A DNA stretch of 39,130 nucleotides from IMG/VR virus record IMGVR_UViG_2563366972_000008, positions 1-39,130 of that record; one strand, 5' to 3'. This document shows, piece after piece, positions 1,209 through 39,130 of the stretch (its first letter is position 1; each line of letters begins with the position of its first letter). The position numbers were made by a program, and so were the translations under genes. The notes beneath the pieces are model-generated. The model saw nothing but the letters and a program-made list of their open reading frames with translations, had not been told where the DNA came from and did no database searches. Source of the DNA: a virus (Duplodnaviria > Heunggongvirae > Uroviricota > Caudoviricetes).

Positions 1209-1219
1209 ATTCACCCCAC

Positions 1220-1245
1220 AAAAAAGCCCGCCTGAACCGGCGGGC
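1220..1245 (-). terminator. Rho-independent terminator downstream of lom
   Basis: GC-rich inverted repeat GCCCGCC/GGCGGGC followed by a U-run on the minus-strand transcript. Confidence 0.5.
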
Positions 1246-1272
1246 TGTCATAACACTGTGTTACCTGGCTAA

Positions 1273-1872
1273 TCAGAATTTATAACCGACACCCACGATG
1301 AAACCGTCAGTGCGCCAGTCACCACTGCCGGAGCCTTCATAAGCAATATCAATGGCCACGGATTCGGTCGGGTTAAACTGCACGCCAGCCCCCCACGCCA
1401 GAGACGTGTTGCTGTGGCGACCGTCATCACTTCCGGTCAGCACATCGTGCTTTTTCCCCTTGTTGTCAGTTACGCGAAGATAATCCCCGGAGAAAGTCGA
1501 CACACGGCTGTAAGCTACACCCGCCATCGCATACGCGCTGAACCATTCATTCACGCGCACAGACGGCCCCGCCATTACGCTGAACCAGCGGTTACGAACG
1601 GAATCTTCATGCCAGCGGGTATCGCTGTAACGGGTCAGCTGGCGATTCTTGTCTCCTGCATAGCTGAATGACGTCACCAGCCCCAGTGTGTCCGTAAACT
1701 CATAACGGTATTTCACGTTAATCCCGTTCAGATCATCGCTGCCGGGGACGTTCGTCGAGGCATGAAGATACCCCGCGCTCAGCGTGGACTGATGTTCAGA
1801 CGCCCATGCAGGCGCACCGGATACGGCCAGACAAATGGCTGCGGACAAAATTGCTGCACAAACTTTACGCAT
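1273..1872 (-). CDS. lom: Lom/Ail-family outer membrane beta-barrel protein
   Basis: 199-aa ORF with signal peptide, alternating beta-strand pattern and C-terminal GYKF; sits after J as in lambda. Confidence 0.9.
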   Translation of the reverse strand: MRKVCAAILSAAICLAVSGAPAWASEHQSTLSAGYLHASTNVPGSDDLNGINVKYRYEFTDTLGLVTSFSYAGDKNRQLTRYSDTRWHEDSVRNRWFSVMAGPSVRVNEWFSAYAMAGVAYSRVSTFSGDYLRVTDNKGKKHDVLTGSDDGRHSNTSLAWGAGVQFNPTESVAIDIAYEGSGSGDWRTDGFIVGVGYKF

Positions 1873-1894
1873 AATTACCTCTCGCTTTTCTGCA

Positions 1895-1927
1895 ATAAAA
1901 AAGGCGTCATTCCTGACGCCCTTTATT
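1895..1927. terminator. Hairpin terminator between J and lom, probably bidirectional
   Basis: Inverted repeat GGCGTCA-ttcc-TGACGCC flanked by an A-run upstream and T-rich tract downstream. Confidence 0.5.
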
Positions 1928-1942
1928 GGGGTTATAAATATT

Positions 1943-4900: not shown

Positions 4901-5440
4901 CCGTATACTGAACGGGCGCGGCGGCAGGTTACCCACCACCACCGAGGCCAGATACTGCGAGGTGGTTTTGCCCTTAATGGTGATGTCTTTTTCCGTCACC
5001 CAGCCACCATTACGCTGTATCTGAACCAGCAGGCGGACTTCCGACGGATTCCTGTCCCCCTTTGAGGTGGTTTCCACCAGTGCCTGCACGCCGAAGGTAA
5101 AACGCAGTCGGTCAATGTTTGCCGACGTGATGGTCCAGGTGATCGGCGTGTCGTATTTCACTTCCGTACCCAGCACCGTCTCGGAACCGGAGGATTCAAA
5201 CCCCTCCGGCGGAGTCTGCTCCTGCTCACCTGCCCGGAACACCACCGTGACGCCGGATATATTGGTATTCCCCTCACTGTCCAGCACCGGCGTACTGTTC
5301 AGCAGCACGCTTTTTAATCCATCCACCGGACCTTCAATCGGCCCTTCGCTGATGGCATCGATCACACTCAGCAGCTGCGTGGACTTCAGGTTGTCCTTCG
5401 CTTCGCGCGGGGTATGCCCCTTACTGCTGCCTTTACCCAT
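1943..5440 (-). CDS. J: Tail tip / host specificity protein J
   Basis: 1165-aa ORF in the J position between I and lom; size and context match the lambda central tail fiber. Confidence 0.9.
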
Positions 5441-5500
5441 TCGTCATGCTCCATAAACGATAAAACCGCCCGGAGGCGGTTTCACATAAAACATTTTGCA

Positions 5501-6172
5501 TCAGCGACCAATCACCACAACCTGACCACCGTCCCCTTCGTCTGCCGTGCTGATCTCCTGAGAAACCACCCGCGACCCCACACGCATTTCACCGTACAGA
5601 ACAGGCAAAACATTGCCCTGGGCAACCATGTTATCCAGTGAGGAGAAATAGGTGTTCTGTTTGCCGTTATCTGTACTGGCTGCCGTGGGCGTCCTGGCTT
5701 TCGGTGCCAGCATCTGCGCCACACCACCGAGCACCATACTGGCACCGAGAGAAAACAGGATGCCGGTCATACCACCGGCCCCAATGGCTGCCCCCCATGC
5801 TGCAAGGGTGGCTCCGGCAGTAAAGAATGATCCGGCAATGGCGGCAGCCCCCAGAACAATCTGGAATACGCCCCCTGACTTGGCCCCGGCGACTCTGGGA
5901 ACAATATGAATCACAGCGCCGTCAGGCAGAGTCTCATGTAACTGCGCCGTTAACCCGGACGTGCTGACGTCCCGCCCGGCAATCCGTACCTGATACCAGC
6001 CGTCGCTCAGTTTCTGACGAAACGCCGGGAGCTGTGTGGCCAGTGCGCGGATGGCTTCAGCCCCCGTTTTCACACGAAGGTCGATGCGGCGGCCAAATCG
6101 TTGCAAATCCCCGTAAAGGCAGATGCGTGCCATTCCCGGTGACGCCAGAGGGAGTGTGTGCGTCGCTGCCAT
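5501..6172 (-). CDS. I: Tail assembly protein I
   Basis: 223-aa ORF with Gly/Ala-rich hydrophobic C-terminal half, between K and J as in lambda. Confidence 0.8.
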   Translation of the reverse strand: MAATHTLPLASPGMARICLYGDLQRFGRRIDLRVKTGAEAIRALATQLPAFRQKLSDGWYQVRIAGRDVSTSGLTAQLHETLPDGAVIHIVPRVAGAKSGGVFQIVLGAAAIAGSFFTAGATLAAWGAAIGAGGMTGILFSLGASMVLGGVAQMLAPKARTPTAASTDNGKQNTYFSSLDNMVAQGNVLPVLYGEMRVGSRVVSQEISTADEGDGGQVVVIGR

Positions 6173-6822
6173 TTGTCGGTATACCTCTCTCGTTTGCTCA
6201 GTTGTTCAGGAATATGGTGCAGCAGCTCGCCGTCACCACAGTAAATGGCGGCATGATTCGGCACCGATGAACCAAAGCAGCACAGCAGCACATCGCCCGG
6301 TTGTGCTGATGACAACGCCACCTGATACAGCCCTGTGGCCTCCAGATTATCCAGATAGAGATTCTGACCGTGACGCCACCAGTCATCCTCGCGATGAAAA
6401 TCCGGCATCTCAATCCCCGCCAGATGGTAAGCATCCCGGAACAGCGTGTAACAGTCCGTCACCCCGTGCTCAAAGCGCCGCCCGGAAAGATGTGGCACAC
6501 AGCGGAACTTGTGAATCGCCCCCCGGCAAACCAGCCACCACGGCAAATCACTCTGCACCTGCAGCCGCCGGTCGGTCTCACTCAGCCAGGGCAGACCACC
6601 GGGGTGGCTGTGGACCAGCGCCACAATCTCTCCCTGCATTTCTGCACTCAGCCAGTCCTCCGGCGACATCCGGAAATACGCCTCCGGCTCACCGGATATA
6701 TTCACGCAGGGAAAATATCTTTCCCCCTCCGGTGTTCTCACCACGAAGCCACACGACTCCGCTGGCGCACATCGCCGGGCGTGCGCCAGAATCGCTGATT
6801 CTGTCTCTGTCATGGGATTCAC
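6070..6822 (-). CDS. K: Tail assembly protein K (NlpC/P60 and JAMM-like)
   Basis: Translation MTETESAILAHARRC...HSHPGG matches lambda K as recalled; true start probably the ATG giving MTETES. Confidence 0.8.
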   Translation of the reverse strand: MNPMTETESAILAHARRCAPAESCGFVVRTPEGERYFPCVNISGEPEAYFRMSPEDWLSAEMQGEIVALVHSHPGGLPWLSETDRRLQVQSDLPWWLVCRGAIHKFRCVPHLSGRRFEHGVTDCYTLFRDAYHLAGIEMPDFHREDDWWRHGQNLYLDNLEATGLYQVALSSAQPGDVLLCCFGSSVPNHAAIYCGDGELLHHIPEQLSKRERYTDKWQRRTHSLWRHREWHASAFTGICNDLAAASTFV

Positions 6823-7517
6823 TGCGAAAGTTTGTTAATGGAAAGGAAGCCGCCAAAGTTGCCGACGTTATTGCGAAACTTACAGCCACTCAGGCATTTG
6901 CTACATTTATCCTTCGTGATATCGGACGTTGGCTGGTCATATTCATCCGCGACAGCCGGGCCATCATAACCGCACTCATCGCCGCGGTAGATCCAGGTGC
7001 AGGTGTTGGCCAGCATGATGCGCCCCGGAAAAACAGCGCCATCCGTTTCCGTCGGTGTGGACAGCACAAAAGAGGCACTGACCGCGCTCAGTTCGCTGCA
7101 CTGTTCGATGCGCCAGCGGCTGATCACCTCCTGCTCCGGATCGGCGTCACTGTTTCCGTTGACGAAGTTCACCGCATCCAGAAAACGGGCGTAAACCTTA
7201 CGCCGGACCACCGTTCCGCCGACCAGACTCTGCAGATCTTCCGCCATCCCGGTGACCATGCCGTACAGATTAGAGACTTTCAGCGTTGGCCTTGCACTGG
7301 CTCCTTTGCCGTTCATCTCAAATCCGCTTCCATGAATGGGATAGGCCTGATACTGCCGCCCCTGCCAGGTGACTGGTTCACCTTTTTCGTTCTGCTCATT
7401 ACAGAAGAAATAACGATCTCCGCCGACCTCTGTCAGATCAATTTCCCAGAGCACGACCAGCGCGGATTGCTCCGTTTTAGTGCACTCATTGAGTGTTTCC
7501 TGCTGTATATCCTGCAT
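6819..7517 (-). CDS. L: Minor tail protein L
   Basis: 232-aa translation MQDIQQETLNECTKTEQSALVVLWEIDLTEVGG... is near-identical to lambda L as recalled. Confidence 0.9.
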   Translation of the reverse strand: MQDIQQETLNECTKTEQSALVVLWEIDLTEVGGDRYFFCNEQNEKGEPVTWQGRQYQAYPIHGSGFEMNGKGASARPTLKVSNLYGMVTGMAEDLQSLVGGTVVRRKVYARFLDAVNFVNGNSDADPEQEVISRWRIEQCSELSAVSASFVLSTPTETDGAVFPGRIMLANTCTWIYRGDECGYDGPAVADEYDQPTSDITKDKCSKCLSGCKFRNNVGNFGGFLSINKLSQ

Positions 7518-7873
7518 CAGTGAGTGACCTCTTCAAAGGTACAGTTAAAATCGGTATACATGGCATTATCCGAAATGCTCCACTCCCTGCAGACAACCCG
7601 GACAGTCCTGTTGTGTTTTGGCGGACGCCACAAAAAAGCACGAATCCCGGCATGACGGGATAAAAAACTGTCCAGCGCGGCACGGGAATATTCATCTGTG
7701 ACACGAAATACCGGTTTAAACGTTTTCAGATCCGCATTCAGACCACCAGCCCGTCGCTGTTCATATCCGTCACCAAACTTTACCGTAATAACTGATGGCT
7801 TTCGTGTCGTCTCCATCCCCTCACGGGGGATCCAGTTAAAAACTTCAGGCTCAGGCACTGTACAATCCTCCAT
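7517..7873 (-). CDS. M: Minor tail protein M
   Basis: Conserved FNWIPREGM...VKFGDGY resembles lambda M. Start uncertain: ATG 7873 fits the alignment, ATG 7816 has the better RBS. Confidence 0.7.
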   Translation of the reverse strand: MEDCTVPEPEVFNWIPREGMETTRKPSVITVKFGDGYEQRRAGGLNADLKTFKPVFRVTDEYSRAALDSFLSRHAGIRAFLWRPPKHNRTVRVVCREWSISDNAMYTDFNCTFEEVTH

Positions 7874-10800
7874 CCCGACGCGATGACTGCATAATTGACA
7901 CAACCCTGCTGTCGATCAGATCCACCAGTCCCCTGGCTGAGCGCGCATCTATCTCGCCATTGCTCCCTTGATTCTGAATGCTGATGTGATACACGGGAGA
8001 ATAAACAAATCCACCGCCACCATTCACATTTCCAATGGCCCTGACCCCAAGAGAGCCGTCCGCTGCCCGTGTCAGTGGCATGATTGCTTCAGGCCCGGCC
8101 TCGCCCATCAACCCGGCACCTTTCGCAAAAGCAAAATACGTCGGTGTATCCACAATAGTGTTACTGTAAGCACTCAGATTTGCCGATGTGTAAACACCAC
8201 CTTTTGCGTTTGCCACTGCCCCCGAAATCCATCCGCCGACCGTACCAAGCCACCCTCCGGCACCGGAGAGTGATTTCAGTCCGTTAACAATGGCTGCATT
8301 CATCAGAATTTTTGAAACTTCCCGGAGAACTGAACTCCCCCAGTTCCTCCAGTCCACAACATTCCCGGCCAGTGCATCGGAAATATTTGATACCAGCCCG
8401 TCCATCGTGGAAACGACAGCATCTGCCGCCTGTGAAGCATAATCGGTGGCACTGTCTGCCCAGTTGGTCAGTCCCTCCTGGAGTCCGGCATTCCAGTTAT
8501 TACGTAAAGCATCGGCCTTTGCATAATAATCCTGCTGATCGCTGAGACGCTCTTCCAGATATTTTTTATTCAGTTCTTTCTCCTGTTTCCACAGGGCTTC
8601 TTCAATTTCTCCGGCCTGATACTGTCTCAGCAGCTCGTTATTTTTCTGCTCAAACGCCTGCCGGATACTCCACATTTCCTGGAGTCGTTCACGCATCCGT
8701 GAGCCTTCACCATATCCCAGCAACTGCGCTTCGTCAGATGCCCGGGCACTGGCATTACTGTCCGCCAGACTGCTCTCATACGCAGCAAGCTGCTCACGAA
8801 TCTTTTTCTGGTCGATGAGTGCTGCATTCTGCAAAAGCGTTTTTTTCTGCGCTTCTGACAGGGTTGATAATTCGCCCTGACTGACCTGATATTTCATCTT
8901 AGCCAGTTCAGTATTCTGCCCTGCCAGTGCTATCTGCTCTTTCTGCTGTTTAATCAGCCGTTTATAAATATCTTCTGTTTTTTCCGCTTCGGTCTTTTTA
9001 TGCGCTTTGGGTTTATTTGCCTGGTTATTTCGCCATGCATCCAGTGAATTATTAATATAATTCAGTCTTGCTGTCTGATATGCCTCTCCCACAAAGCCGA
9101 GATCATCCGCAGCATAACCCAGGCGGGCACGCTCACGGGCTTCCCCCTTCAGGCGGGACAGAGCCAGTTCGCGCTCGCTGTTATTCAGTGCTGTCTGCTG
9201 TTTATCATCCAGGGTGGCCTGTGGCAGCCGTAATGGTACATTCACCAGCCCCTGACGCTGCTGAAGTAACTCATTACCAAGCCCGAGAAGGTGATTAAAC
9301 TCAGTGTACTGACCATTCATGATCAACAGGGACTGATACGCTTTATTTTGCTCCGCCGCCTGTTGACGAATCAACGCCACCCGTCGCTCCTCCAGCCCGG
9401 CAAGCACATCCTGAATGGATTGCGCTTTGCCCTGCATTTGAGTGAGGCGAGACTGTTCAACTGCCAGTTGATTTGTTGCTTCTGCAAGCCCTTCTGTGAC
9501 AGTTTTTACCGACGTCATGTGGTTAATCATAAAACCGTTATCGGTTGTCCAGCCCGGGTTTGCCAGCACATACTGATAGCCAGCAATTTTTTCCTGTAAG
9601 GATTTAATCTTACTTTTCTGCTCGTCAATTAACCTGTTTTGCTCATCAAGTGCCTGCCGCGTCTTTTCCTCATTATCTGACGCTTCAGGAAGCGACATTG
9701 CCGACGTTTTCTGGCGAATTTCGTCGATTGTTGCGGCATACTGGCGTGCAGATTCTCTGGCCTGCTCCTGATTCTGATACATCGTGTACCAGGCCGCGGC
9801 TCCCAGCATGACAAGCCCCGGCACACCCCCAACCAGCCCCAGTGCCCCACTTAACAAACGGCTCCCCACTGACGTGACAGTATTCAGCGTTGTCTGTGCT
9901 GCTGTTCTGGCCGCAATATTACGGGTAAGTGATGCCTGGGCAGCAGCCAGTTTCGCTTCTGCGGCTGCCTGCCTTTCTGTACCACGGGTAGCCACAACTG
10001 CCTGTTGCGCACGATAAACCGCCGCACGCGCCCTGGCTGTTGCTATCTGTGTCCCCCGGAGTTGCGCTTCCGCAAGAGCCACTTCGTTTCTGGCTGCAGT
10101 AATTAATCCGGCAGTTGCAGATCCAGCAGAAGACGCCATATTGCCAAAATATCGGGCTACCCCGACGGCAACCAGAGCACCGGCAGCGGTTGCCACGGTG
10201 TCAATATTGCCTGCAATACCATTCAGCACACCGGAGAGCGTCTTCGTCACTCCGCTTGCCTCGTTCGCACCACCAACCCAGGCCATAAAGGCGTTTTCAA
10301 CTTTGGTTGCAGAGGATGAAACCGTATCAGGCATTGCCGCATATTCATCACGTAATGCCCCAAGCTGACTAATCAGTGCAGGAACAACCTTATCGGTGGT
10401 CAGTTTTCCGTTATCCGCCATGGCCTTCAGATCCTTACGGGCAACACCCATTCCCGCAGCCAGCGCACGAATAACACGATCGCCGTTCTCATTCACCGAG
10501 TTAAACTCTTCACCGCGCAGCACTCCCTGCGCCAGTGCCTGACTGAACTGCGTGATCACCGAACTGGCTTCTGCTGTACTGGCACCGGATAAATTCAGGC
10601 CCGTGGAGATCGCCTCGGTGACTTTCAGTACTTCCTCAGAACTGTAACCATACTCCCGCATGGAAGCTGCAGAACGGGCAAAAAGGCGTGCGTTATCAGA
10701 AAACGCCGTCCCCGTTTTCTGGCTGATCGCCATTAATTCACGCTGTGATGCCTGAAAATCATCACTGGACTGTGAGGCCTGCTTCAGACGGGCATTTACT

Positions 10801-11084
10801 GAACTCCATTCATCCGCAAGAGATATAAGATGTCCAGTGGCAAAAGCACCGGCAAATGCGCCAGCCATGTTCAGTGCCGAAGATTTAGCTGTATTTATCT
10901 GATCCGTCACTTCTGCCAGTGCACGCCGCATTTCACGGGATGCAGCAGCGGACTGCCGGCCTCCGTTCTGCATGGTACGGTAGTAATCCTGCCCCATACG
11001 CGAAGCCCGGGAGATCTCTGACTGGAATGACCGGGAATTTGCCGAGATTTTAATAATCAGTTCACGTAATGTCGCCACACTCAT
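7851..11084 (-). CDS. H: Tail tape measure protein (H-like)
   Basis: 1077-aa ORF, Ala/Gln-rich and coiled-coil-like, between the G/T chaperone and M. Confidence 0.9.
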   Translation of the reverse strand: MSVATLRELIIKISANSRSFQSEISRASRMGQDYYRTMQNGGRQSAAASREMRRALAEVTDQINTAKSSALNMAGAFAGAFATGHLISLADEWSSVNARLKQASQSSDDFQASQRELMAISQKTGTAFSDNARLFARSAASMREYGYSSEEVLKVTEAISTGLNLSGASTAEASSVITQFSQALAQGVLRGEEFNSVNENGDRVIRALAAGMGVARKDLKAMADNGKLTTDKVVPALISQLGALRDEYAAMPDTVSSSATKVENAFMAWVGGANEASGVTKTLSGVLNGIAGNIDTVATAAGALVAVGVARYFGNMASSAGSATAGLITAARNEVALAEAQLRGTQIATARARAAVYRAQQAVVATRGTERQAAAEAKLAAAQASLTRNIAARTAAQTTLNTVTSVGSRLLSGALGLVGGVPGLVMLGAAAWYTMYQNQEQARESARQYAATIDEIRQKTSAMSLPEASDNEEKTRQALDEQNRLIDEQKSKIKSLQEKIAGYQYVLANPGWTTDNGFMINHMTSVKTVTEGLAEATNQLAVEQSRLTQMQGKAQSIQDVLAGLEERRVALIRQQAAEQNKAYQSLLIMNGQYTEFNHLLGLGNELLQQRQGLVNVPLRLPQATLDDKQQTALNNSERELALSRLKGEARERARLGYAADDLGFVGEAYQTARLNYINNSLDAWRNNQANKPKAHKKTEAEKTEDIYKRLIKQQKEQIALAGQNTELAKMKYQVSQGELSTLSEAQKKTLLQNAALIDQKKIREQLAAYESSLADSNASARASDEAQLLGYGEGSRMRERLQEMWSIRQAFEQKNNELLRQYQAGEIEEALWKQEKELNKKYLEERLSDQQDYYAKADALRNNWNAGLQEGLTNWADSATDYASQAADAVVSTMDGLVSNISDALAGNVVDWRNWGSSVLREVSKILMNAAIVNGLKSLSGAGGWLGTVGGWISGAVANAKGGVYTSANLSAYSNTIVDTPTYFAFAKGAGLMGEAGPEAIMPLTRAADGSLGVRAIGNVNGGGGFVYSPVYHISIQNQGSNGEIDARSARGLVDLIDSRVVSIMQSSRRDGGLYSA

Positions 11085-11123
11085 TCTCCGGACGAAAAAA
11101 ACCGCCGAAGCGGTTATGTTGAC

Positions 11124-11414
11124 TCACTGAGACACTATTAAAAGCGCGTTTTCCAGTCCGGCAAATGGATCTGAGACGCCTTCTGTCTGCTCTTGTTCCC
11201 ACTGAAGAAGCGCATCATTCAGTGGGACTTTGACACCCTGCGCACCGTAAACCGCAGAAACTATCTGGGCAGCCCGGATATCAGCCCGCTCGTCACCCAG
11301 CGGGCTGAACCTGTCAAATTCTGCCCACATCATGATTTCTGATGCGGACATTTCCCGGCGTAACTCTGACAATGTGCGCCCCATCCTGAGCGCCAGCATC
11401 ATCAGAAAACGCAT
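11124..11414 (-). CDS. T: Tail assembly chaperone T segment, expressed as a G-T fusion by -1 frameshift
   Basis: ORF in the -1 frame relative to G, directly downstream of a slippery A-run at the end of G. Confidence 0.6.
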   Translation of the reverse strand: MRFLMMLALRMGRTLSELRREMSASEIMMWAEFDRFSPLGDERADIRAAQIVSAVYGAQGVKVPLNDALLQWEQEQTEGVSDPFAGLENALLIVSQ

Positions 11415-11425
11415 CCCCGGAAGCG

Positions 11426-11812
11426 CTACTTTTTTTTAACCTCGCCGGCATCACTGATCAGTTCCAGAGACTGCCGAAGAAGCCGCGCATGCACCGGGCC
11501 ATACACGGCAATCACCCGTTCACGATCATCCTCTGAAAATACAGGTTGCAGTCCGGTATCACACAGAACATCAATGAACAGTTCAACATCTGCCTCCAGA
11601 TTTCGGCGGGCGCGCTCCGCAACGGATAACGGTGTCTCATCATCTTTTGCTTTAACGATCTCCTGCCAGCGCAACCAGGCTTCTGCAGAAGGTTCCCGTA
11701 ATACAACCGTTGCCCCTTCCCATTCAGGCACATCAACAGTTTTATGGCGAAACCCCGACATCGTTGCCAGTGCCAGATTGCGGATATTTTTAGTCATCAC
11801 ATCTATCCTCAT
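11426..11812 (-). CDS. G: Tail assembly chaperone G
   Basis: 128-aa acidic ORF between major tail protein and tape measure; ends ...GEVKKK with slippery site A_AAA_AAG. Confidence 0.7.
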   Translation of the reverse strand: MRIDVMTKNIRNLALATMSGFRHKTVDVPEWEGATVVLREPSAEAWLRWQEIVKAKDDETPLSVAERARRNLEADVELFIDVLCDTGLQPVFSEDDRERVIAVYGPVHARLLRQSLELISDAGEVKKK

Positions 11813-12516
11813 TAACTGACGGTAACAGTGCAGGAAGTGGAGGTCACCTTGTTAACAGGGCTTGCTGAGTCAGAAATCTCGCAGGTATACGCACCGGCAT
11901 CACCTGATGCTGCTGATGCCTTACTGAACGTTGCCGCCGTCTGTCCGGAAACAGGAGAACTACCTTTCTTCCAGACATAAGAATAAGGCGGCACACCACC
12001 GGCAGCCTCAACCACCATTTCGAGTTTCGCTCCGGCAGAAACCTGCAGCGTGCTGTTTAAATCGACTTTCACTTTCAGCGGCTCTGTCGTCAGCACAGGT
12101 TTACCTTTCAGACGCAGGGAAAACGTTGCAGCCACAACACCATTGGTTCCTGCAGACCAGGTATGCTGACGCACCTCTGCCATAAAGGTAAATCCGTTGC
12201 CTGACGGAAAAATAACTTTAAAGCCATACGTGGTGTCATTGTCATAGGCACTGCGCAACGCGTTCTGGGCAGCATTGAGATAAAAGTTGCCTGACATGGA
12301 AATCTCTGACGCGGCACCAAGGCCGTTAATATTTTCCTGCTCAACAGAACACAGCGTGGTGACATCAATATCCTGCTTTTGTCCTGCGGTAAACTGCACC
12401 TCTTTGATTGTACAGCTCAGGCCAAGATAGCTGGCAGAATCCAGGGTTTCTGCTGTTACCGGTGCAGACGAAATCATAATTTTCGTCAGTTGCGAACGCT
12501 CAAAATTAGAGGACAT
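11812..12516 (-). CDS. V: Major tail protein with C-terminal Ig-like domain (V-like)
   Basis: Position upstream of G; AGGAGA RBS before the ATG at 12516; C-terminal Ig-like region (GGVPPYSYVW...TCEISD). Confidence 0.8.
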   Translation of the reverse strand: MSSNFERSQLTKIMISSAPVTAETLDSASYLGLSCTIKEVQFTAGQKQDIDVTTLCSVEQENINGLGAASEISMSGNFYLNAAQNALRSAYDNDTTYGFKVIFPSGNGFTFMAEVRQHTWSAGTNGVVAATFSLRLKGKPVLTTEPLKVKVDLNSTLQVSAGAKLEMVVEAAGGVPPYSYVWKKGSSPVSGQTAATFSKASAASGDAGAYTCEISDSASPVNKVTSTSCTVTVS

Positions 12517-12575
12517 ACTCGTCTCCTGAAAATAAAAAACCCGCCAGCGGCGGGTGGATAAAATCATTAATGACC

Positions 12576-12920
12576 TCAGGCTATTACCTGGAATTCAAGC
12601 GTGGCTCTGCTCAGACGGGAGTCAGGATCATAACCCTGCGTTTTAGAAATAACGGAGGGTGCCAGTTTTCTTACCGCATCAAGCGCCTGCTCACGAATAT
12701 TATCTGCGTCATCAGGTACTGTCGCCCAGACATCGATCTGCACGGTAATTCTGGATTCAGCCTGACCATCAAGCACATCAGATGCCGTGTCAGACACCAC
12801 AGAAAACACCAGCCACGGCGGAGATACCGCAGGCTTTCCCTCCGTCAGCGGGACCACATAAGGATAAACCTGTCCTCCGGCCAGCTGAGACAGCAGGGAA
12901 TACAGTGTGGCTTCCCTCAT
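12576..12920 (-). CDS. Tail terminator / tail completion protein (U-like)
   Basis: 114-aa ORF directly upstream of the major tail gene in a coupled gene string. Confidence 0.65.
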   Translation of the reverse strand: MREATLYSLLSQLAGGQVYPYVVPLTEGKPAVSPPWLVFSVVSDTASDVLDGQAESRITVQIDVWATVPDDADNIREQALDAVRKLAPSVISKTQGYDPDSRLSRATLEFQVIA

Positions 12921-13366
12921 TTACTTAAGACCTCATCAATAGCCTGATTCATTCGCTGTATGGCAATCTGTGCTGCCAGTTCCTCTGTCGTATCGAAAGC
13001 CGGGCGAATGAACGGATGCGCGGGCATGTTTATCGTTCCCAGCTCCACAAAGCGCCAGTAAAACGCATTTCGGGGATCGCTGGCTTTCATGCTGTTATCA
13101 CTGTTTCCGGTTCGCAGGTTCCGTCCGCGAATGTGGACACCCGAGATAATTTCCCCCCGACGCTTTGAACGCTGAGTGAGAACAACCACATTTTTTTTCA
13201 GTTTCCCGGTTCGCTCCGGCGCACGTTCAACAACTGCATCCCGCATAACTTCAGCACCGGCACGGGTGGCATCGCGCAGTACCTTATTGTTTTCTGCCCT
13301 GCTGAGCGTCTCCAGATCCCGTGCAATATCCGCCAGACCTGAAAAATCAAGACTGAAATCCATCAC
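12917..13366 (-). CDS. Tail completion protein (Z-like, HK97 gp10-type)
   Basis: 149-aa ORF with ATGA-type overlap to neighbours in the head-tail joining block. Confidence 0.65.
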   Translation of the reverse strand: MMDFSLDFSGLADIARDLETLSRAENNKVLRDATRAGAEVMRDAVVERAPERTGKLKKNVVVLTQRSKRRGEIISGVHIRGRNLRTGNSDNSMKASDPRNAFYWRFVELGTINMPAHPFIRPAFDTTEELAAQIAIQRMNQAIDEVLSK

Positions 13367-13701
13367 ACATTCCCCTTCTGAGAACAGAGTATCTCAAGCC
13401 GGGTGGCGCGTGCATCCGGTATTGGTGGACCTTCTATACCCAGAATGGCCCCTTTAAATGCACCGGTCAGCACTTTCAGACGTGAAGTCGCTGTCACATC
13501 GCGCCGGAATCTCATCCAGACTCTGACCGTAGCCTGAGCGGTTTCTGCTCCACCTGAGATTCTCTCCCTCCCGCTGATACCCTTAACTTCTGCCCATACG
13601 GTTGCCCCCTCCGTCATTGTCTCCACCGGATGCCCTGACGGAGAACGGACGGTGGTGACATTCAGAATAGTTACGCGATCACGTAACCTGCCCGCCTGCA
13701 T
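13363..13701 (-). CDS. Head closure / head-tail adaptor protein
   Basis: 112-aa ORF between head-tail connector and tail completion genes. Confidence 0.65.
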   Translation of the reverse strand: MQAGRLRDRVTILNVTTVRSPSGHPVETMTEGATVWAEVKGISGRERISGGAETAQATVRVWMRFRRDVTATSRLKVLTGAFKGAILGIEGPPIPDARATRLEILCSQKGNV

Positions 13702-13709
13702 GGTTCCTC

Positions 13710-14027
13710 CTACAAAGGAATAAAACGATAAGGCTCCAGCAGAGAAGAAAAACCAAACGGGATTGGTGCCTTACTGACATCTGAGGAATTTTCCCGGTTT
13801 TCGTACCAGTGCCCGACCAGCAACATGAGCGCCAGCAAAACATCATCAGCTATAAGCACCCCTTCAGGATCACTCTCTGGCACCGTCTCCTCATAAAGCT
13901 TACGGTTGATAAAATTTTCTGCCTTACGGCAGGCAGCCCGGAAATACAGCATCAGTAACTCATCATCAGTTGCATCATCTGTATCAATACGGCACTGCGC
14001 CCTGAGTTTTTCCACTATTGCTGCCAT
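13710..14027 (-). CDS. Head-tail connector protein (gp6-like)
   Basis: ORF immediately downstream of the major capsid gene; start chosen at ATG 14027 with CAGGAG RBS. Confidence 0.65.
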   Translation of the reverse strand: MAAIVEKLRAQCRIDTDDATDDELLMLYFRAACRKAENFINRKLYEETVPESDPEGVLIADDVLLALMLLVGHWYENRENSSDVSKAPIPFGFSSLLEPYRFIPL

Positions 14028-14071
14028 CAGAAACTCCTGCCCGCAGCACTGTGCGGGCATAAAAAACTGCA

Positions 14072-15295
14072 TTACGCAGCGGCTTTCTGGCGGGTTGCAG
14101 CCCCAATTTTCATCAGCTTAATCGCCTGAGAATCCACCAGCATACCGCCGGTTCGCTTGGTGGTATAAAAGCCCACAAACGGTTTGTTGGTGTAAGGATC
14201 GCGCAGGATGCGGGTGCCGATGCGATCAACGATGGTATAGCCACGTTTGAAATTACCAAACGCAATGGCTTTTGCATCGGCGGCAATATCCGGCATCTGC
14301 TCATTTTCAACGATGCCATACCCTGCCAGAGAAGAAGGCTGACCCAGCTCAATACCCGGACGCCACAGATAATTTCCGTCGTTATCCTTCAGCAGACGAA
14401 TGGCAAACAGGCTGCTGTTGTTCATCATGAACTTCGCGCCGCTGCGGTGCGCCTTGCGCAGGGTGTAAATCAGTTTAATAATCGCATCGGCGGTCACGCC
14501 AGAAGCCGCACCGGAAGCAATGTGCTGAAGTTTGCCAAATGCACGGGTCTTGTCATCTTCATCAGTGGACTCATAAGCCAGAAAACCTTTTGGTTTTTTG
14601 CTGCCGTCGCCACTGGTAAAGGCAATTTCTTCCTGTTCGGCAAATTCCAGCGCCAGTTCACTGTTGATCCAGTCTTCCACATTGAAGAAAGCATCATCGA
14701 GCATTTTCTGGGTGGCCTGCGGGTTGCCGTAGATTTCCCCCATAAAGGGTTCAATCAGACCCAGTTTTGAGGTGGCGGTTTCAGGACGTGCATCCGTTTC
14801 CCCCACCCATCCGGACGTTGTGCCGCCCAGATTCACCAGTTTTTTATAATCCGAGCCACCGAGGGTGATCACAGTGGCTTCCTGGCGCATCACCACCTCA
14901 TCTTTCAGCAGCGTCAGAATGGTGCGATCCAGTTCTTCCGGAATGGCATAACCACCATCTTCATCATTGCCCACCTGCAGCGCCTTACGCTCAAGCTCAC
15001 GCAGACCGTCTTCACGCCCCTTGCGCATAAAACCGATAAACGCTTCTTTATGTTCACCGGCAACTTTATTTTGCGTGCCGCCTGCCGGACGTTTAACTTC
15101 AGCCAGCTCAGCCTCAAGATCGCTTTTCAGGTTCTCCAGCTCGCTGATTTGCCCGTTCAGGCTTTCCACCTGTTCGGCCAGCTTGCCTTTTTCCTGTTCG
15201 ATCGCGTCAATGCGCTTGTCGTTTTTTGCCTTAAAATCGTCAAACTTCTGCTGCAGCTCCTGCGCGACCTGCTCCACATCTTTAATGTCAGCCAT
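14072..15295 (-). CDS. Major capsid protein, HK97 family
   Basis: 407-aa ORF with N-terminal coiled-coil delta-like region, downstream of the prohead protease. Confidence 0.85.
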   Translation of the reverse strand: MADIKDVEQVAQELQQKFDDFKAKNDKRIDAIEQEKGKLAEQVESLNGQISELENLKSDLEAELAEVKRPAGGTQNKVAGEHKEAFIGFMRKGREDGLRELERKALQVGNDEDGGYAIPEELDRTILTLLKDEVVMRQEATVITLGGSDYKKLVNLGGTTSGWVGETDARPETATSKLGLIEPFMGEIYGNPQATQKMLDDAFFNVEDWINSELALEFAEQEEIAFTSGDGSKKPKGFLAYESTDEDDKTRAFGKLQHIASGAASGVTADAIIKLIYTLRKAHRSGAKFMMNNSSLFAIRLLKDNDGNYLWRPGIELGQPSSLAGYGIVENEQMPDIAADAKAIAFGNFKRGYTIVDRIGTRILRDPYTNKPFVGFYTTKRTGGMLVDSQAIKLMKIGAATRQKAAA

Positions 15296-15309
15296 TATTT
15301 TTCTCCTGG

Positions 15310-15960
15310 TTAAAATTTAAGATTTTTCAGTGCATTCAGTGCGGCATCCACATCCTCAGCATCACGCAGGGATAAAGCGCCATATCCCCCGGCCATGAAT
15401 GCTTTGGCCTGGGTTCGCGAGAGTCCAACATCGCGCAGGACCCGCTCAATAATTTTCTGATCAGGGATCTCCCCACGCGCCAGCGCATTTTTCACATCGC
15501 TGATACGTGCCTCATCATTGCAAGGAAACGTCACCAGACTGACCTCCCACAGGTCGATCTCTTTCAGCAGGAATACCCCTTTTTCACGGTCGTACTCCCA
15601 GTCTTTCAGGATGTAGCCAATAGAAAGGCCGGTTAAAGAACCGGCCTTCATATGGGCATGTGCACGTTTTGCCAGGGGATCATCATCAACGAGTAATCGC
15701 CCCCTGACATAAAGCCCGACATCATCTTCTTTCATTTCGGTGTACACACCGATGGGCTCATCCATACGGTGCTGCCAGAGCAACGCAGGCAGCGCCTTTT
15801 TTTCGCTCCATTTCTGGAGTGTTGTGGTAAAGGCACCGGGGACCACCACATCATCGTGGCTGTCCTTAACACCAAAAACAGAACCGTAACCTTCAAATTC
15901 CCCGGAATCACTGACGGATTTCAGGTTCAGCGGTATATCAAGACGCTGTTTTGTCTGCAT
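15310..15960 (-). CDS. Prohead protease, HK97 family
   Basis: ORF between portal and capsid; AGGAGAG RBS before the ATG at 15960. Confidence 0.8.
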   Translation of the reverse strand: MQTKQRLDIPLNLKSVSDSGEFEGYGSVFGVKDSHDDVVVPGAFTTTLQKWSEKKALPALLWQHRMDEPIGVYTEMKEDDVGLYVRGRLLVDDDPLAKRAHAHMKAGSLTGLSIGYILKDWEYDREKGVFLLKEIDLWEVSLVTFPCNDEARISDVKNALARGEIPDQKIIERVLRDVGLSRTQAKAFMAGGYGALSLRDAEDVDAALNALKNLKF

Positions 15961-22030: not shown

Positions 22031-22105
<75 letters not shown>

Positions 22106-22108
22106 ATA

Positions 22109-22184
<76 letters not shown>

Positions 22185-22186
22185 AC

Positions 22187-22263
22187 TGGACCGCCACCGG
22201 GGACTCGAACCTCGCACACTCAACTTAAAGGGTTGACGCTCTTTCCTGATGAGCTAGTGGCGG
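22187..22263 (-). tRNA. tRNA-like gene with noncanonical anticodon loop CCUUUAA (possibly Lys-UUU; C at position 33)
   Basis: Acceptor CCGCCAC/GTGGCGG, T-arm with TTCGAGT loop and encoded CCA; anticodon loop lacks the usual U33 and the T-stem has one mismatch. Confidence 0.55.
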
Positions 22264-22264
22264 T

Positions 22265-22340
22265 TGGTGGCCCTTGCTGGATTTGAACCAGCGACCTGGC
22301 GATTATGAGTCGCTCGCTCTCACCACTGAGCTAAAGGGCC
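22265..22340 (-). tRNA. tRNA with CAU anticodon, ileX/ileZ-like (Ile2 or Met)
   Basis: Acceptor GGCCCTT/AAGGGCC, anticodon loop CUCAUAA, TTCAAAT T-loop, CCA; resembles the Ile2 tRNA carried by lambdoid phages downstream of Q. Confidence 0.8.
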
Positions 22341-26732: not shown

Positions 26733-26885
26733 TTAACGTTTTTCAACTTCGTAGGCTAAATACGCTGAAAGCTCTGTGTTTCCCTGCCTGATGTGCAGCT
26801 CGCATAGCGAACCGCGAACCATCCAGACAAATATCAGAATGGTGATGCAAACCACCACCAGACAAAACACATAGCTCCTTCGCAT
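26733..26885 (-). CDS. hok: Hok/Gef-family type I toxin
   Basis: 50-aa ORF (absent from the ORF track) found by hand translation: MRRSYVFCLVVVCITILIFVWMVRGSLCELHIRQGNTELSAYLAYEVEKR; one TM helix plus the conserved LCE motif; AGGGGG RBS. Confidence 0.75.
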   Translation of the reverse strand: MRRSYVFCLVVVCITILIFVWMVRGSLCELHIRQGNTELSAYLAYEVEKR

Positions 26886-26943
26886 TACAGCCCCCTGTTA
26901 GTTGATTTCTTACTGTTAAGAGGCTAATCTTTATGTGTCGCAT
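26743..26943 (-). CDS. mok: mok-like overlapping reading frame
   Basis: 66-aa ORF overlapping hok in another frame and starting about 60 nt upstream, as in hok/mok/sok loci. Confidence 0.45.
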   Translation of the reverse strand: MRHIKISLLTVRNQLTGGCNAKELCVLSGGGLHHHSDICLDGSRFAMRAAHQAGKHRAFSVFSLRS

Positions 26944-27176
26944 ACAGAATGCCTCAGATTAATGTTAAGCGTCTTGCCGGACGCGTAATGTTAACTGGGG
27001 CTTTTCTCTATCTGCCGTTGGTGTTCATGCCCGAGGCAGATAGCCTCAAGCACCCGCAGCAATTCTACTTAACTCTCCTTTTCCCGCAAACCGTTTTTAT
27101 CCCCAGCGGCAAATCGAATACACCACCAGCGCCACCGCCATCGCAATTCCTACCGTTGTGAATGCTTCAGGCCAAG

Positions 27177-34338: not shown

Positions 34339-36810
34339 ATGAGTAAAGTCTTTATTTGCGCCGCCATTCCGGACGAACAGGCAATAAAGGAAGAAGGTGC
34401 AGTCGCTGTAGCCACTGCCATTGAAGCCGGTGACGAACGCCGCGCCCGTGCCAAATTTACCTGGCAATTCCTGGAGCAATATCCGGCTGCTCAGGACTGC
34501 GCTTATAAATTTCTTGTCTGCGAGGATAAACCCGGCATGCCCCGCCCTGCTATCGACTCATGGGATACCGAATATATGCAGGAAAACCGCTGGGATGAAG
34601 AGTCAGCCTCTTTTGTCCCGGTCGAACCAGAATCCGATCCGATGAACGTCAATTTTGACAAGCTGTCCCCTGAAGTGCAGAACGCAGTCCTGGTTAAGTT
34701 CGGTACATGCGAAAACATCACCGTTGATATGGTGATTAGCGCACAGGAGTTACTGCAGGAAGACGTGGCGACATTCGACGGGCATATCGTTGAAGCACTG
34801 ATGAAAACACCAGAAATTAACGCTATGTATCCGGAACGCAAACTGTTCGCTATCGGATGGGTTAAACATAAATGTAAGCCTGGCGCAAAATGGCCGGACA
34901 TTCAGGCCGAATTACGTAACTGGAAAAAACGGCAGGACGCAGAGCGCAAAGAGACTGGAAAATACACGTCTGTTATTGATCTTGCCCGCGCCAAAGCCAA
35001 CCGACAGCACACTGAAAACCCGGCGGGAAAAATCCCCCCTGCCACTGCTGCCATTCGTCGTGAATACAAGCAGACATGGAAAACACTGGATGAAGAACTG
35101 GCCTACGCTCTCTGGCCTGGTGATATTGATGCCGGAAACATTGACGGCAGCATCCATCGCTGGGCAAAAAATGAAGTTATCGACAAGGATCGCGAAGACT
35201 GGAAGCGCATCTCCGCATCAATGCGCAAACAGCCTGATGCGCTTCGCTACAGCCGTCAGACGATTTTTGGTCTCGTTCGCGAACGTCCGATCGACATTCA
35301 CAAAGACCCTGTGGCACTGAACAAATACATTACTGAATACCTGACTACAAAGGGCGTGTTTGAAGATGAAGGAACAAATCAGAGCGCAACTGATACTCTC
35401 TCGTCGCCAGTACCAGAAACTGATGCAGTGGAAACGGCAATTCCGGACAACGAAAAAACCGAATGCAAAGTGGAAGTCGAACCATCTGTAGAGCGTGAGG
35501 GGCCGTTCTACTTCCTCTTCACCGACAAGGATGGCGAAAAATACGGTCGCGCAAACAAACTTTCTGGTCTGGATAAGGCGCTGGCTGCCGGGGCTACTGA
35601 AATCACGAAAGAAGAATATTTCTCCCGCAAAAACGGTACATACTCAGGTTCACAACAAAATACTGGTGCATCTGACACGACCGCACAACCAGAGCCGGTA
35701 AAAGTTACCGCTGAAGAAGTAAACAAAATTATGCAGGCAGCCAATATCAGCCAGCCTGACGCCGATGAACTGCTTGCAGTATCACGTGGTGAATTTGTTG
35801 CAGGGATTAGCGATCCGAATGATCCGAAATGGGTGAAGGGGATTGAAACCCGCGATTCTGTGAACCAGAACCAGCAAGAAACGGAACAGAACGACCAGAA
35901 AGCGGAACAAAACAGCCCAAATACGCAACAAAACGAGCCAGAAACGAAACAACCTGAACCAGTAGTGCAACAGGAACCGGAAAAGATCTGCACCGCCTGC
36001 GGTCAGAGCGGTGGCGGCAACTGCCCTGATTGTGGTGCGGTGATGGGTGACGCAACATACCAGGAAATATTCGATGGAGAGAATCAGCCTGAAGTTCAGG
36101 AAAATGATCCGGAGGAAATGGAAGGCACTGCGCATCAGCACAAGGAGAACACTGGCGGCAATCAGCATCATGCCAGCGATAGTGAAACTGGCGAGGCGTC
36201 AGATCCCTTAATTAAGGTGAACGGTCATCATAATCTCACATCCTCCAGCAGAGCGGGAATTCATCTGATGATCGACCTTGAAACCATGGGAAAAAATCCC
36301 GATGCCCCGATTATCTCAATAGGCGCAATATTTTTCGATCCGCAAACCGGAGATATGGGACCGGAATTTAGTAAGACTATCGATCTGGAAACTGCTGGCG
36401 GAGTCATTGATCGGGACACCATTAAATGGTGGCTTAAGCAATCACGCGAAGCGCAATCTGCCATTATGACCGATGAAATCCCGTTAGATGATGCACTGTT
36501 ACAATTGCGGGAATTTATCGACGAAAACTCCGGTGAATTTTTTGTTCAGGTCTGGGGAAATGGAGCCAACTTCGACAACACGATTTTGCGCCGTTCATAC
36601 GAACGGCAGGGGATCCCCTGCCCGTGGCGCTACTGCAACGATCGCGATATACGCACAATCGTTGAGCTGGGGAAAGCCATAGACTTCGATGCCAGAACTG
36701 CTATCCCATTCGAAGGTGAGCGCCATAATGCACTTGATGACGCTCGTTACCAGGCAAAATACGTTTCAGCTATCTGGCAAAAACTGATCCCGAGTCAGGC
36801 TGATTTTTAA
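34339..36810 (+). CDS. Large early protein with C-terminal DnaQ-like (DEDDh) 3'-5' exonuclease domain; full-length YdfE-like
   Basis: 823-aa ORF; C-terminal motifs MIDLETMG, WGNGANFD and HNALDDARY; acidic Q/E-rich linker with a CTAC...CPDC zinc-ribbon-like motif. Confidence 0.8.
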   Translation: MSKVFICAAIPDEQAIKEEGAVAVATAIEAGDERRARAKFTWQFLEQYPAAQDCAYKFLVCEDKPGMPRPAIDSWDTEYMQENRWDEESASFVPVEPESDPMNVNFDKLSPEVQNAVLVKFGTCENITVDMVISAQELLQEDVATFDGHIVEALMKTPEINAMYPERKLFAIGWVKHKCKPGAKWPDIQAELRNWKKRQDAERKETGKYTSVIDLARAKANRQHTENPAGKIPPATAAIRREYKQTWKTLDEELAYALWPGDIDAGNIDGSIHRWAKNEVIDKDREDWKRISASMRKQPDALRYSRQTIFGLVRERPIDIHKDPVALNKYITEYLTTKGVFEDEGTNQSATDTLSSPVPETDAVETAIPDNEKTECKVEVEPSVEREGPFYFLFTDKDGEKYGRANKLSGLDKALAAGATEITKEEYFSRKNGTYSGSQQNTGASDTTAQPEPVKVTAEEVNKIMQAANISQPDADELLAVSRGEFVAGISDPNDPKWVKGIETRDSVNQNQQETEQNDQKAEQNSPNTQQNEPETKQPEPVVQQEPEKICTACGQSGGGNCPDCGAVMGDATYQEIFDGENQPEVQENDPEEMEGTAHQHKENTGGNQHHASDSETGEASDPLIKVNGHHNLTSSSRAGIHLMIDLETMGKNPDAPIISIGAIFFDPQTGDMGPEFSKTIDLETAGGVIDRDTIKWWLKQSREAQSAIMTDEIPLDDALLQLREFIDENSGEFFVQVWGNGANFDNTILRRSYERQGIPCPWRYCNDRDIRTIVELGKAIDFDARTAIPFEGERHNALDDARYQAKYVSAIWQKLIPSQADF

Positions 36811-36868: not shown

Positions 36869-37072
36869 ATGAGCAGCTTATTTTTAACCGAAGATGAATT
36901 GCTAATATTAACGGGCTGCAAATATGCAAGCCACCAGCGAAAATGGTTAATGGAAAACGGGCTTCCGTTCTATACCAATCGTAGTGGCAAACCGATTGTC
37001 AGCCGGGATCTATTTACCTGCAATAAAACTTTACCACCACGCGAGGTAGAGCCGAATTTTGGTGCGATCTGA
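36869..37072 (+). CDS. xis: Excisionase (Xis)
   Basis: 67-aa ORF immediately upstream of and overlapping the integrase start. Confidence 0.7.
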   Translation: MSSLFLTEDELLILTGCKYASHQRKWLMENGLPFYTNRSGKPIVSRDLFTCNKTLPPREVEPNFGAI

Positions 37073-38097
37073 TGGGAAGACGAAGGAAAAATCCTGAACA
37101 CGAAAAATTACCTCCAAATGTATACCCAAATAAATATAGTTATGTATGGAAACCAACATCCAGAGAATCTGTCACACTAACCGCCATCAAGGATGGTTTA
37201 GCTGCTTTATGGAAAAAGTATGAGGAAACTGTAAATAATCGCGATCGTGCAATGACATTCGGTCGCTTGTGGGAAAAATTCCTCGCCAGCGCCTATTACA
37301 GTGACCTTAGTCCAAGAACACAAAAAGATTATCTGCAACATCAAAAAAAGTTGCTTGCCGTATTCGGTAAGGTACCAGCGGATTCCATAAAACCAGAACA
37401 CATCCGTCGATACATGGACAAAAGAGGGGAGCAGAGTAAAACGCAAGCCAACCATGAAAAAAGCAGTATGTCCCGTGTTTACAGTTGGGGGTATGAGCGA
37501 GGGTACGTGAAGGCTAACCCATGTGCAGGTGTAAGTAAATTCAAGGCCAAAAACCGCGAACGATATGTAACCGACAAAGAATACCAGGCAGTATTAAGCG
37601 TTGCACCTCTTCCTGTTTTTATCGCAATGGAAATTGCCTATCTGTGTGCAGCGAGGGTTTCCGATGTGTTATCGCTGAAATGGGAACAGATTGGAAACGA
37701 CGGGATATTCATCCAGCAAGGGAAAACCGGAAAAAAACAGATAAAAGCATGGAGTCCACGATTACAGGCAGCGATCGAAAAAGCAAAACAGTTACCAAAA
37801 TCTGCCTATGTGATCAGCAATCAATACGGCAACCGATATATGTACAAAGGCTTTAACGAAATGTGGGTAGAAGCAAGAAATCGTGCTGGAAAAATTTCAG
37901 GTATTTTAACCGACTTCACCTTTCATGATCTGAAGGCGAAAGGAATTTCAGACTATGAAGGAAGCAGCCGGGATAAGCAACTTTTCTCTGGTCACAAAAC
38001 CGAAGGGCAAGTGCTAATCTATGACAGGAAGGTTAAAATTTCACCAACACTTAATGTCCCGTTACCTGAAAATATTCCAAGAAAATATTCCAAGTAA
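37072..38097 (+). CDS. int: Tyrosine integrase
   Basis: 341-aa ORF with tyrosine-recombinase C-terminal catalytic region, 52 bp from a tRNA gene. Confidence 0.9.
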   Translation: MGRRRKNPEHEKLPPNVYPNKYSYVWKPTSRESVTLTAIKDGLAALWKKYEETVNNRDRAMTFGRLWEKFLASAYYSDLSPRTQKDYLQHQKKLLAVFGKVPADSIKPEHIRRYMDKRGEQSKTQANHEKSSMSRVYSWGYERGYVKANPCAGVSKFKAKNRERYVTDKEYQAVLSVAPLPVFIAMEIAYLCAARVSDVLSLKWEQIGNDGIFIQQGKTGKKQIKAWSPRLQAAIEKAKQLPKSAYVISNQYGNRYMYKGFNEMWVEARNRAGKISGILTDFTFHDLKAKGISDYEGSSRDKQLFSGHKTEGQVLIYDRKVKISPTLNVPLPENIPRKYSK

Positions 38098-38149
38098 TTC
38101 CAAGTGTGATTTTTGTCACTGACTTAATGATGTGTAAGTGATTGAATTT

Positions 38150-38239
38150 TGGCGGAGAGAGGGGGATTTGAACCCCCGGTGGAGTTGCCCCCACTCCGGT
38201 TTTCGAGACCGGTCCGTTCAGCCGCTCCGGCATCTCTCC
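38150..38239 (-). tRNA. serU: tRNA-Ser (anticodon CGA), serU-like; probable attachment site
   Basis: 90-nt cloverleaf with long variable arm, anticodon loop CUCGAAA, acceptor GGAGAGA/TCTCTCC, encoded CCA. Confidence 0.85.
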
Positions 38240-38332
38240 GTTCAGATGGTTGCCATGATGCCAGGAAATTTGGCATTTTAACAGTCCCTGTCCGTGCAAT
38301 TTTGTTCAAGTGACGAGTTTGCGAGCAAAACG

Positions 38333-39130
38333 ATGATTAAGTGGCCCTGGAAAGTACAAGAATCAGCACATCAAACTGCCCTTCCCTGGCAGGAAGCACT
38401 ATCGATCCCCCTTTTAACGTGTCTGACGGAACAGGAACAAAGCAAATTAGTCACTCTTGCCGAACGTTTTTTACAGCAAAAGCGGCTTGTTCCTTTACAG
38501 GGCTTTGAACTGGATTCATTAAGAAGCTGCCGGATAGCACTTCTATTTTGCCTACCCGTTCTGGAGTTAGGACTGGAATGGCTGGATGGTTTTCATGAAG
38601 TCTTAATTTATCCTGCGCCATTTGTGGTCGATGATGAATGGGAAGACGATATCGGTCTGGTGCATAACCAACGTATTGTTCAGTCAGGTCAGAGCTGGCA
38701 GCAAGGGCCTATCGTTTTGAACTGGTTGGATATACAAGATTCTTTTGATGCTTCTGGTTTTAACCTGATTATTCATGAAGTCGCTCATAAGCTGGACACC
38801 CGTAACGGCGATCGCGCCAGCGGAGTTCCCTTTATTCCGTTGCGTGAGGTTGCTGGCTGGGAACACGATCTTCATGCTGCAATGAACAACATTCAGGAAG
38901 AAATCGAATTGGTTGGCGAGAATGCGGCGAGCATTGATGCTTATGCTGCCAGTGATCCTGCTGAATGTTTTGCCGTACTTTCTGAATATTTCTTTAGCGC
39001 CCCAGAACTTTTTGCTCCTCGTTTCCCTTCATTGTGGCAACGTTTCTGCCAATTTTATCAACAAGATCCTTTGCAGAGACTGCATCGCACTAATGATACA
39101 GACTCGTTTTCGGCGACGAATGTTCATTAA
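38333..39130 (+). CDS. mtfA: MtfA (Mlc titration factor A, zinc peptidase)
   Basis: Translation from ATG 38333 ([23 protein letters not shown]..., HEVAHKLD zinc motif) matches E. coli MtfA as recalled; host gene flanking the prophage. Confidence 0.85.

Follow-up and report, generated by a model that had tools for sequence, protein, structure and literature searches.

A lambda-like prophage junction at the tRNA-Ser gene serU of Escherichia coli, with probable strand exchange in the anticodon stem-loop

The tRNA-Ser gene serU is a documented insertion site of lambdoid and Stx phages (PMC8065619; PMC7067040; PMC8767318). The described serU prophages of E. coli (PP_SE11-6 of strain SE11, those of STEC O145:H28, O121:H19 and O157:H7, and SerU-LTIIb) occupy one and the same site, between yodB and mtfA, and a 77-nt duplication has been reported for the prophage of SE11 (PMC2608844). 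Insertion in serU has also been reported for phage ST64B (PMC10100743). Such sites belong to a well-populated type: in the Islander survey, the anticodon-centred class comprises 2083 of the 3919 islands in tRNA genes and is the commonest class of all (PMC4383910). In this class ("A" of Williams and Islander), an intact tRNA gene lies beside the integrase and a displaced 3' fragment at the other end, with a block of identity that runs from the anticodon stem-loop to slightly past the tRNA 3' end.

We analyzed a stretch of DNA of 39,130 nucleotides (hereafter, the window), and we are highly confident that its positions 38098-38260 hold the integrase-proximal junction of a lambda-like prophage inserted in chromosomal serU, between yodB and mtfA, with a 77-nt copy of the host site in attP and with strand exchange in the anticodon stem-loop (Table 1). 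The site is that of the serU prophages already described. The duplicated segment is the one reported for PP_SE11-6, and O157:H7 Z852 carries the same integrase beside serU, whereas the body of the prophage is different from the known ones, a new mosaic. We found no substantive difference from Islander class A, of which the serU junction is a textbook example. Beyond the correct annotation of three items (the prophage limit, the hybrid nature of serU, and the disagreement about the integrase 3' end), the locus thus adds little to what is known.

Table 1. Features of the window, with emphasis on its serU junction; positions count from the first base of the window
Feature	Position	Strand	Remarks
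Lambdoid prophage DNA	1-38192	both	phage-type to at least 38192; left side cut by scaffold end
Minus-strand modules		-	side tail fibre, Lom, J, tape measure, capsid, portal, terminase, lysis, four tRNAs, Q region, replication
Plus-strand genes		+	repressor, exonuclease, xis, int
Putative excisionase gene, DUF4224, 67 aa	36869-37072	+	Pfam DUF4224, E = 1.9e-15; PHROG 1266 "excisionase", E = 3e-21
Tyrosine integrase gene (int)	37072-38097	+	341-aa ORF; TAA stop at 38095-38097
Three tandem direct repeats, ATATTCCAAG, ATATTCCAAG, TAATTCCAAG	38072-38104 (starts 38072, 38085, 38095)	+	candidate arm-type sites
attP/attB shared segment, duplicated at both prophage ends	38135-38211		77 nt: 15-nt trailer plus the 3' 62 nt of serU
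tRNA 3' trailer, phage-supplied	38135-38149	-	IHF-like motif ATTCAATCACTTA, 8/9 consensus positions
serU, tRNA-Ser(CGA), 90 nt	38150-38239	-	ARAGORN; Rfam tRNA model, 57 bits at 38153-38239
Phage-type marker bases G38181 and C38192	38181 and 38192		compensatory G-C pair in the variable-arm stem, host alleles A-T; alignments and ARAGORN
Predicted strand-exchange interval, ACTCCGGTTTTCGAGACCG	38193-38211		anticodon stem-loop; left bound, marker 38192; right bound, identity end at 38211
mtfA, chromosomal flank gene, 265 aa	38333-39130	+	Peptidase_M90, E = 4e-60; window ends with the mtfA stop codon

The anatomy of the right end proved to be exactly as an earlier note on this DNA had described it: the integrase stops 52 bp (38098-38149) from the 3' end of an intact serU-like tRNA gene on the opposite strand, whose 3' CCA (38150-38152) points toward the integrase, and mtfA follows. 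The ORF, ARAGORN, Rfam and Pfam all agree on this arrangement, and a gene is annotated under the name mtfA in 5,379 E. coli genomes. The integrase matches the Pfam catalytic domain Phage_integrase (PF00589) over residues 183-317, with 44.9 bits against a cutoff of 27.1, and also N-terminal and central integrase domains (PF22022, PF14659). Its alignment with lambda Int runs from residue 1 to 313 and includes the N-terminal arm-binding motif MGRRR..LPPN.Y. By homology, it is a lambda-family tyrosine integrase of the ST64B/CP-933U type, predicted to be specific for serU. Upstream of int lies the DUF4224 gene, whose stop codon overlaps the int start codon; given its family annotation and its position, it is likely the excisionase gene, and its product would act as the excisionase of this prophage.

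Searching with tblastn, we found homologues of the integrase, 57-60% identical, in Klebsiella phage P7641, Citrobacter phage Chris1 and Salmonella phage ST64B. In all three, int is followed by three repeats and then by a serU fragment that ends at the same base (after GAGACCG). The ST64B integrase, Sb28, is 58% identical over 96% of the length and carries the GenBank note "similar to CP-933U." ST64B resembles the prophage studied here in its xis-int-attP order, its three arm-type repeats and the end base of its serU 3' fragment, which matches Salmonella serU; it differs in its arm motif (TTTCTCA, as opposed to ATTCCAA) and in its Int N-terminal domain, which is only 31% identical. To our knowledge, the late genes of ST64B are not those of a lambda-type siphovirus. 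Phage lambda is a more distant relative, with an overall Int identity of ~25%. It shares the alignment over the full length of Int, the five arm-type sites (repeats in our case), IHF (in our case a similar motif, between core and arm) and an xis gene that overlaps the int start. Unlike the system in serU, which uses a tRNA anticodon stem-loop, lambda has its attB in the gal-bio intergenic region, and it has Arg311 at an Int position that is Lys here.

This lysine, together with the annotation of the integrase 3' end, opens the way to another reading of the locus, in which the boundary is a fossil, that of a defective prophage fixed in place by an integrase that was either frameshifted or inactivated by an Arg-to-Lys change. 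PGAP indeed calls the near-identical integrase "frameshifted" in 702/18, O157:H7 Z852 and MS 196-1, with an end equivalent to 38122, and the residue aligned with lambda Arg311 is Lys288. However, the 341-aa form is annotated as intact in strain 2013C-3033 and in GenBank ON470583. The family is conserved as far as ...KISPTL, a few residues short of the end of the free-phage homologues. The disputed tail is thus not conserved, and is unlikely to matter. The integrase stop codon follows an A4 run, and it is because this run and the arm-type repeats overlap the end of int that PGAP annotations disagree about 38068-38122. As for the active site, R195, H285 and H308 are aligned with their lambda counterparts, and Y317 lies in the conserved block just beyond the alignment, a family-invariant block that is kept up to SPTL. 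In the catalytic signature R...K...H-x-x-R...H...Y, five positions agree, the exception being the second Arg (lambda R311). Lys288 is invariant in five family members, among them the free phages ST64B, P7641 and Chris1, and we therefore regard it as a trait of the family and not as a lesion. All major phage modules are also present in the window. Given these observations, we consider a fossil boundary unlikely; moreover, this reading bears on present activity only, and would leave the identity of the boundary unchanged. What implies that the integrase is active in site-specific recombination is distribution: 1144 genomes carry both types of junction, and free phages carry the same attP. We also observed that Lys288 (codon 37933-37935) stands in the motif FHDLKAKG, where lambda has FHELRSLS.

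Returning to the preferred reading, a lambda-like prophage inserted in serU, its attachment site would be expected to comprise arm-type sites in addition to the core. Three tandem ATTCCAAG repeats are found at 38074-38104, the third of them containing the int stop codon, and they account for three of the four matches to ATTCCAAG in the whole 39-kb window. Measured from the center of the anticodon loop, they lie at -130, -117 and -107, the same offsets as in the three other attP sites, each of which has its own motif. In the four attP sites, the far arm adds one inverted copy, at +47/48, and one direct copy, at +111/112; only the first three repeats fall inside the window. The inverted copy is an exact 7-mer in three of the four sites and a near-match in ST64B. 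The arm motif itself changes from phage to phage, and is ATTCCAA in this prophage, TTTCTCA in P7641 and ST64B, and TATACCA in Chris1. The first 60 residues of Int change with it: they are 31-48% identical between phages with different motifs, where the remainder of Int reaches 60-66%, and 86% identical between the two phages that have a motif in common. Across these phages, then, the positions of the repeats are conserved and their sequence covaries with the Int N-terminal domain. The ATTCCAAG repeats are probably the arm-type sites that the N-terminal domain of the integrase would bind, as with lambda P'1-P'3, and the whole set of five arm-type-like sites, with three in tandem on the int-proximal arm, would follow the plan of the lambda attP. 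The arm sites are farther from the core than in lambda (-107 to -130) because the 3' segment of the tRNA gene intervenes.

Between core and arm, the IHF-like motif in the tRNA 3' trailer is conserved in the four attP sites, and the trailer of the K-12 attB fits the consensus at 9/9 positions, which suggests to us a candidate IHF site. We rejected the possibility that the 13-bp tandem AAAATATTCCAAG is a recent, frameshifting duplication: all six relatives have it, including one that is ~7% divergent, and homologous phages have equivalent triplets.

Taken together, the lysine and the arms lead us to a broader proposal, tentative and held with somewhat less than even confidence. The serU-specific integrase subfamily (this prophage, the CP-933U type, ST64B, P7641 and Chris1) may work with Lys at the Arg-II position, and may also retarget its arm specificity (ATTCCAA/TATACCA/TTTCTCA) by divergence of the N-terminal domain only, the five arm positions staying fixed. 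If this is true, the subfamily would be a natural system for catalysis without Arg-II and for arm-site recognition. Within the locus, specialist interest may attach only to this lysine, conserved at the Arg-II position, and to the covariation of the arm sites.

Where the strands are exchanged can be narrowed down by comparing the tRNA gene of the window with its host and phage versions. It differs from K-12 serU at two positions only, 38181 and 38192. The G-C pair is present in six of six int-side junctions (the window, 702/18, O157:H7 Z852, 2013C-3033, MS 196-1 and GenBank ON470583), and A-T is found in K-12 serU and in both int-distal copies read (702/18 and SerU-LTIIb). Compared with empty sites, the window shows seven differences, all to the left of 38193, and is identical to the empty-site alleles to the right of 38192. 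The identity between attP and attB ends after GAGACCG (38211), and it does so at the same base in the four attP sites, from E. coli, Klebsiella, Citrobacter and Salmonella. With a phage marker at 38192 and the identity ending at 38211, strand exchange is therefore placed within 38193-38211. The anticodon loop TTTCGAG (38201-38207) lies in this interval between the inverted repeat CCGGT/ACCGG, and it is likely the 7-bp overlap region between two core-type sites. The lambda-family heterobivalent integrase would thus exchange strands within the interval, most likely with 38201-38207 as the overlap; the positions of cleavage are those that we infer from this geometry.

By these alignments, the serU gene beside mtfA has two origins. 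The chromosome contributes its 5' 28 nt (38212-38239) together with the promoter side upstream, the phage contributes no less than its 3' 43 nt (38150-38192), and in between, at 38193-38211, phage and host sequences are identical. In the proposed mechanism, the phage attP carries a 77-nt copy of the 3' region of serU (the trailer, 15 nt long, and 62 nt of the tRNA, which extend into the anticodon stem), so that after integration the tRNA next to mtfA would combine the host promoter and 5' third with the phage 3' two-thirds, and would for this reason stay intact. Indeed, ARAGORN and Rfam recognize an intact, regenerated tRNA on the integrase side, and the phage-type bases at 38181 and 38192 indicate that the phage provided part of it. 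The gene annotated as "chromosomal" serU is therefore better described as a host/phage hybrid. We dropped the idea that integration displaces a recognizable serU terminator, since scans for promoters and terminators around serU were uninformative for the window and for K-12 alike.

The earlier note had put the prophage end at about 38150, which did not hold: phage DNA extends to at least 38192, and the crossover, in 38193-38211, is ~45-60 bp further to the right. It is this interval, not 38150, that gives a reliable right-hand limit of the prophage. A junction near 38150 would be at or just past the tRNA 3' end, with a 15-40-nt core in the acceptor/T-arm and a tRNA that is essentially all chromosomal. 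Many integrases do use a T-loop or 3'-end junction (Islander class J; PMC4383910), and the integrase stop is only 52 bp from the tRNA end, but this placement is very improbable in view of the phage-type bases at 38181 and 38192, which are present in every int-side junction and absent from K-12 and from the two int-distal copies read. It is further contradicted by the identity of attP and attB up to 38211 in four independent attP sites, and by the far-junction fragment, which comprises 62 nt of the tRNA instead of 15-40. The suggestion that the att core lies in the 3' part of the tRNA gene was nonetheless right as to location, as the junction alignments confirm; it failed on length, since the shared segment has 77 nt (38135-38211) and reaches into the anticodon stem-loop.

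Thanks to the large number of complete E. coli genomes available, the occupied site could be compared with many empty ones. A junction-spanning query found a match in 5422 of the 5426. In those free of the integrase, the match starts at query base 236, which corresponds to window 38135; this is the start of homology in K-12 DH1 and in 21 of the 22 empty genomes sampled, the remaining one starting at 38142. The K-12 DH1 locus reads yodB, 570 bp, tRNA-Ser, mtfA, tRNA-Asn, yeeJ, with no insert, and its homology to the window covers 38135-39130. The proposed prophage boundary at serU beside mtfA is thus borne out, K-12 and thousands of other genomes having no homology to the left of 38135, and the comparison with an unoccupied serU-mtfA locus, which had been put forward as a check, confirms by the loss of homology at this base that the junction is in the serU region. 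To count occupancy, we used a second query that only occupied sites can cover to at least 80% (empty sites again start at 38135). The junction of integrase, tRNA and mtfA is present in 1144 of the 5426 complete genomes (21%), a recurrence that cannot be due to chance. In a spread sample, the segment had at least two copies in each of the seven occupied genomes and a single copy in each of the 22 empty ones. This integrase type therefore holds serU in roughly one of every five complete E. coli genomes; the junction is at an already known and very common attachment site, and its assignment is correct but unsurprising. We give practically no credence to the view that there is no junction of chromosome and prophage at all, the tRNA-Ser being phage-borne or, together with mtfA, the cargo of a larger island: the phage does have a tRNA cluster of its own (22031-22340), but the order tRNA-Ser, mtfA, tRNA-Asn, yeeJ is found in prophage-free K-12 and in essentially all 5426 genomes, and the identity to empty-site alleles to the right of 38192 refutes it.

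In an inserted prophage of this kind, the displaced 3' fragment of the host gene would move to the far prophage end, beside yodB. Strain 702/18 illustrates this arrangement, with a 41-kb lambdoid prophage between serU and yodB, of which the last 351 bp before serU are 100% identical to the window. At its yodB-side junction, K-12 sequence continues up to the equivalent of window 38211 and is followed by phage DNA, and the int-distal copy matches window 38135-38211. An identical fragment is annotated as a 62-nt pseudo-tRNA-Ser beside yodB in GenBank KU052038 ("phage SerU-LTIIb"), and in both cases the displaced tRNA 3' fragment is in direct repeat. The second copy of the segment in relatives is thus beside yodB, about 41 kb away.

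No second att copy is present in the window, as judged by a search of all 39,130 nt for words of at least 13 nt shared with 38090-38260. This is in line with the earlier note as far as it placed the second copy beyond the left edge, although that edge is a scaffold break and the copy does not lie further along the same scaffold. Window 1-15440 is the reverse complement of bases 1-15440 of scaffold KB733036.1 in the draft assembly GCA_000352305.1, and since the scaffold ends where the window begins, in the tail-fibre region, the int-distal junction must be on another scaffold. Its placement in this prophage is the one that we infer from the relatives; in 702/18, the distance from the equivalent of the window left edge to the yodB-side att copy is ~4-5 kb. 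When species-representative genomes were scanned for exact 50-mers, three loci turned up, 90-97% identical, and none of them reaches yodB. The scaffold break itself falls in a repetitive, Ala/Asp-rich stretch of the side-tail-fibre region.

A serU junction of the int-distal type was also observed in two packaged phage genomes, ev099 (2239-2773 of the stretch compared) and mEp332 (2051-2585). Its parts are a 262-bp stretch that shows no difference from the K-12 yodB-serU spacer, a serU fragment of 78 bp, and the far arm of the phage. The integrase of ev099 is annotated as a 357-aa product ~2.4 kb from the serU junction, and the stretch of mEp332 that we examined has no annotated integrase. These junctions look like host DNA that was picked up in an aberrant excision event or through recombination with a prophage in serU.

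The remainder of the window is a single lambdoid genome throughout. PHROG hits identify J, tape measure, major head, portal, TerL, endolysin, replication initiator and repressor, and the order of int/xis, immunity, replication, Q, lysis, head and tail (J, Lom, Stf) is, on gene content, that of a lambdoid prophage. Compared with the serU prophage annotated in strain 702/18, the window is colinear and mosaic. The best match among complete E. coli genomes covers 78% of the right-hand 25 kb, at 93.5% identity, and by this comparison the body is a new mosaic.

Several genes of the body merit a brief description. The phage tRNA cluster (22031-22340, minus strand) lies between the Q region and the lysis genes and comprises four tRNAs: Gly-UCC, Thr-UGU, Lys-UUU and one with anticodon CAT, which RefSeq names tRNA-Ile in a relative. 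A sok antitoxin RNA (26883-27055, minus strand; Rfam, 93.7 bits) indicates a toxin-antitoxin locus of the hok/sok type, and hokD appears in the annotation of a relative. Adjoining xis, an 823-aa "exonuclease" (34339-36810, plus strand) has a C-terminal Rv2179c-like 3'-5' exoribonuclease domain (E = 2e-66), preceded by a middle part that is long, acidic and of low complexity.
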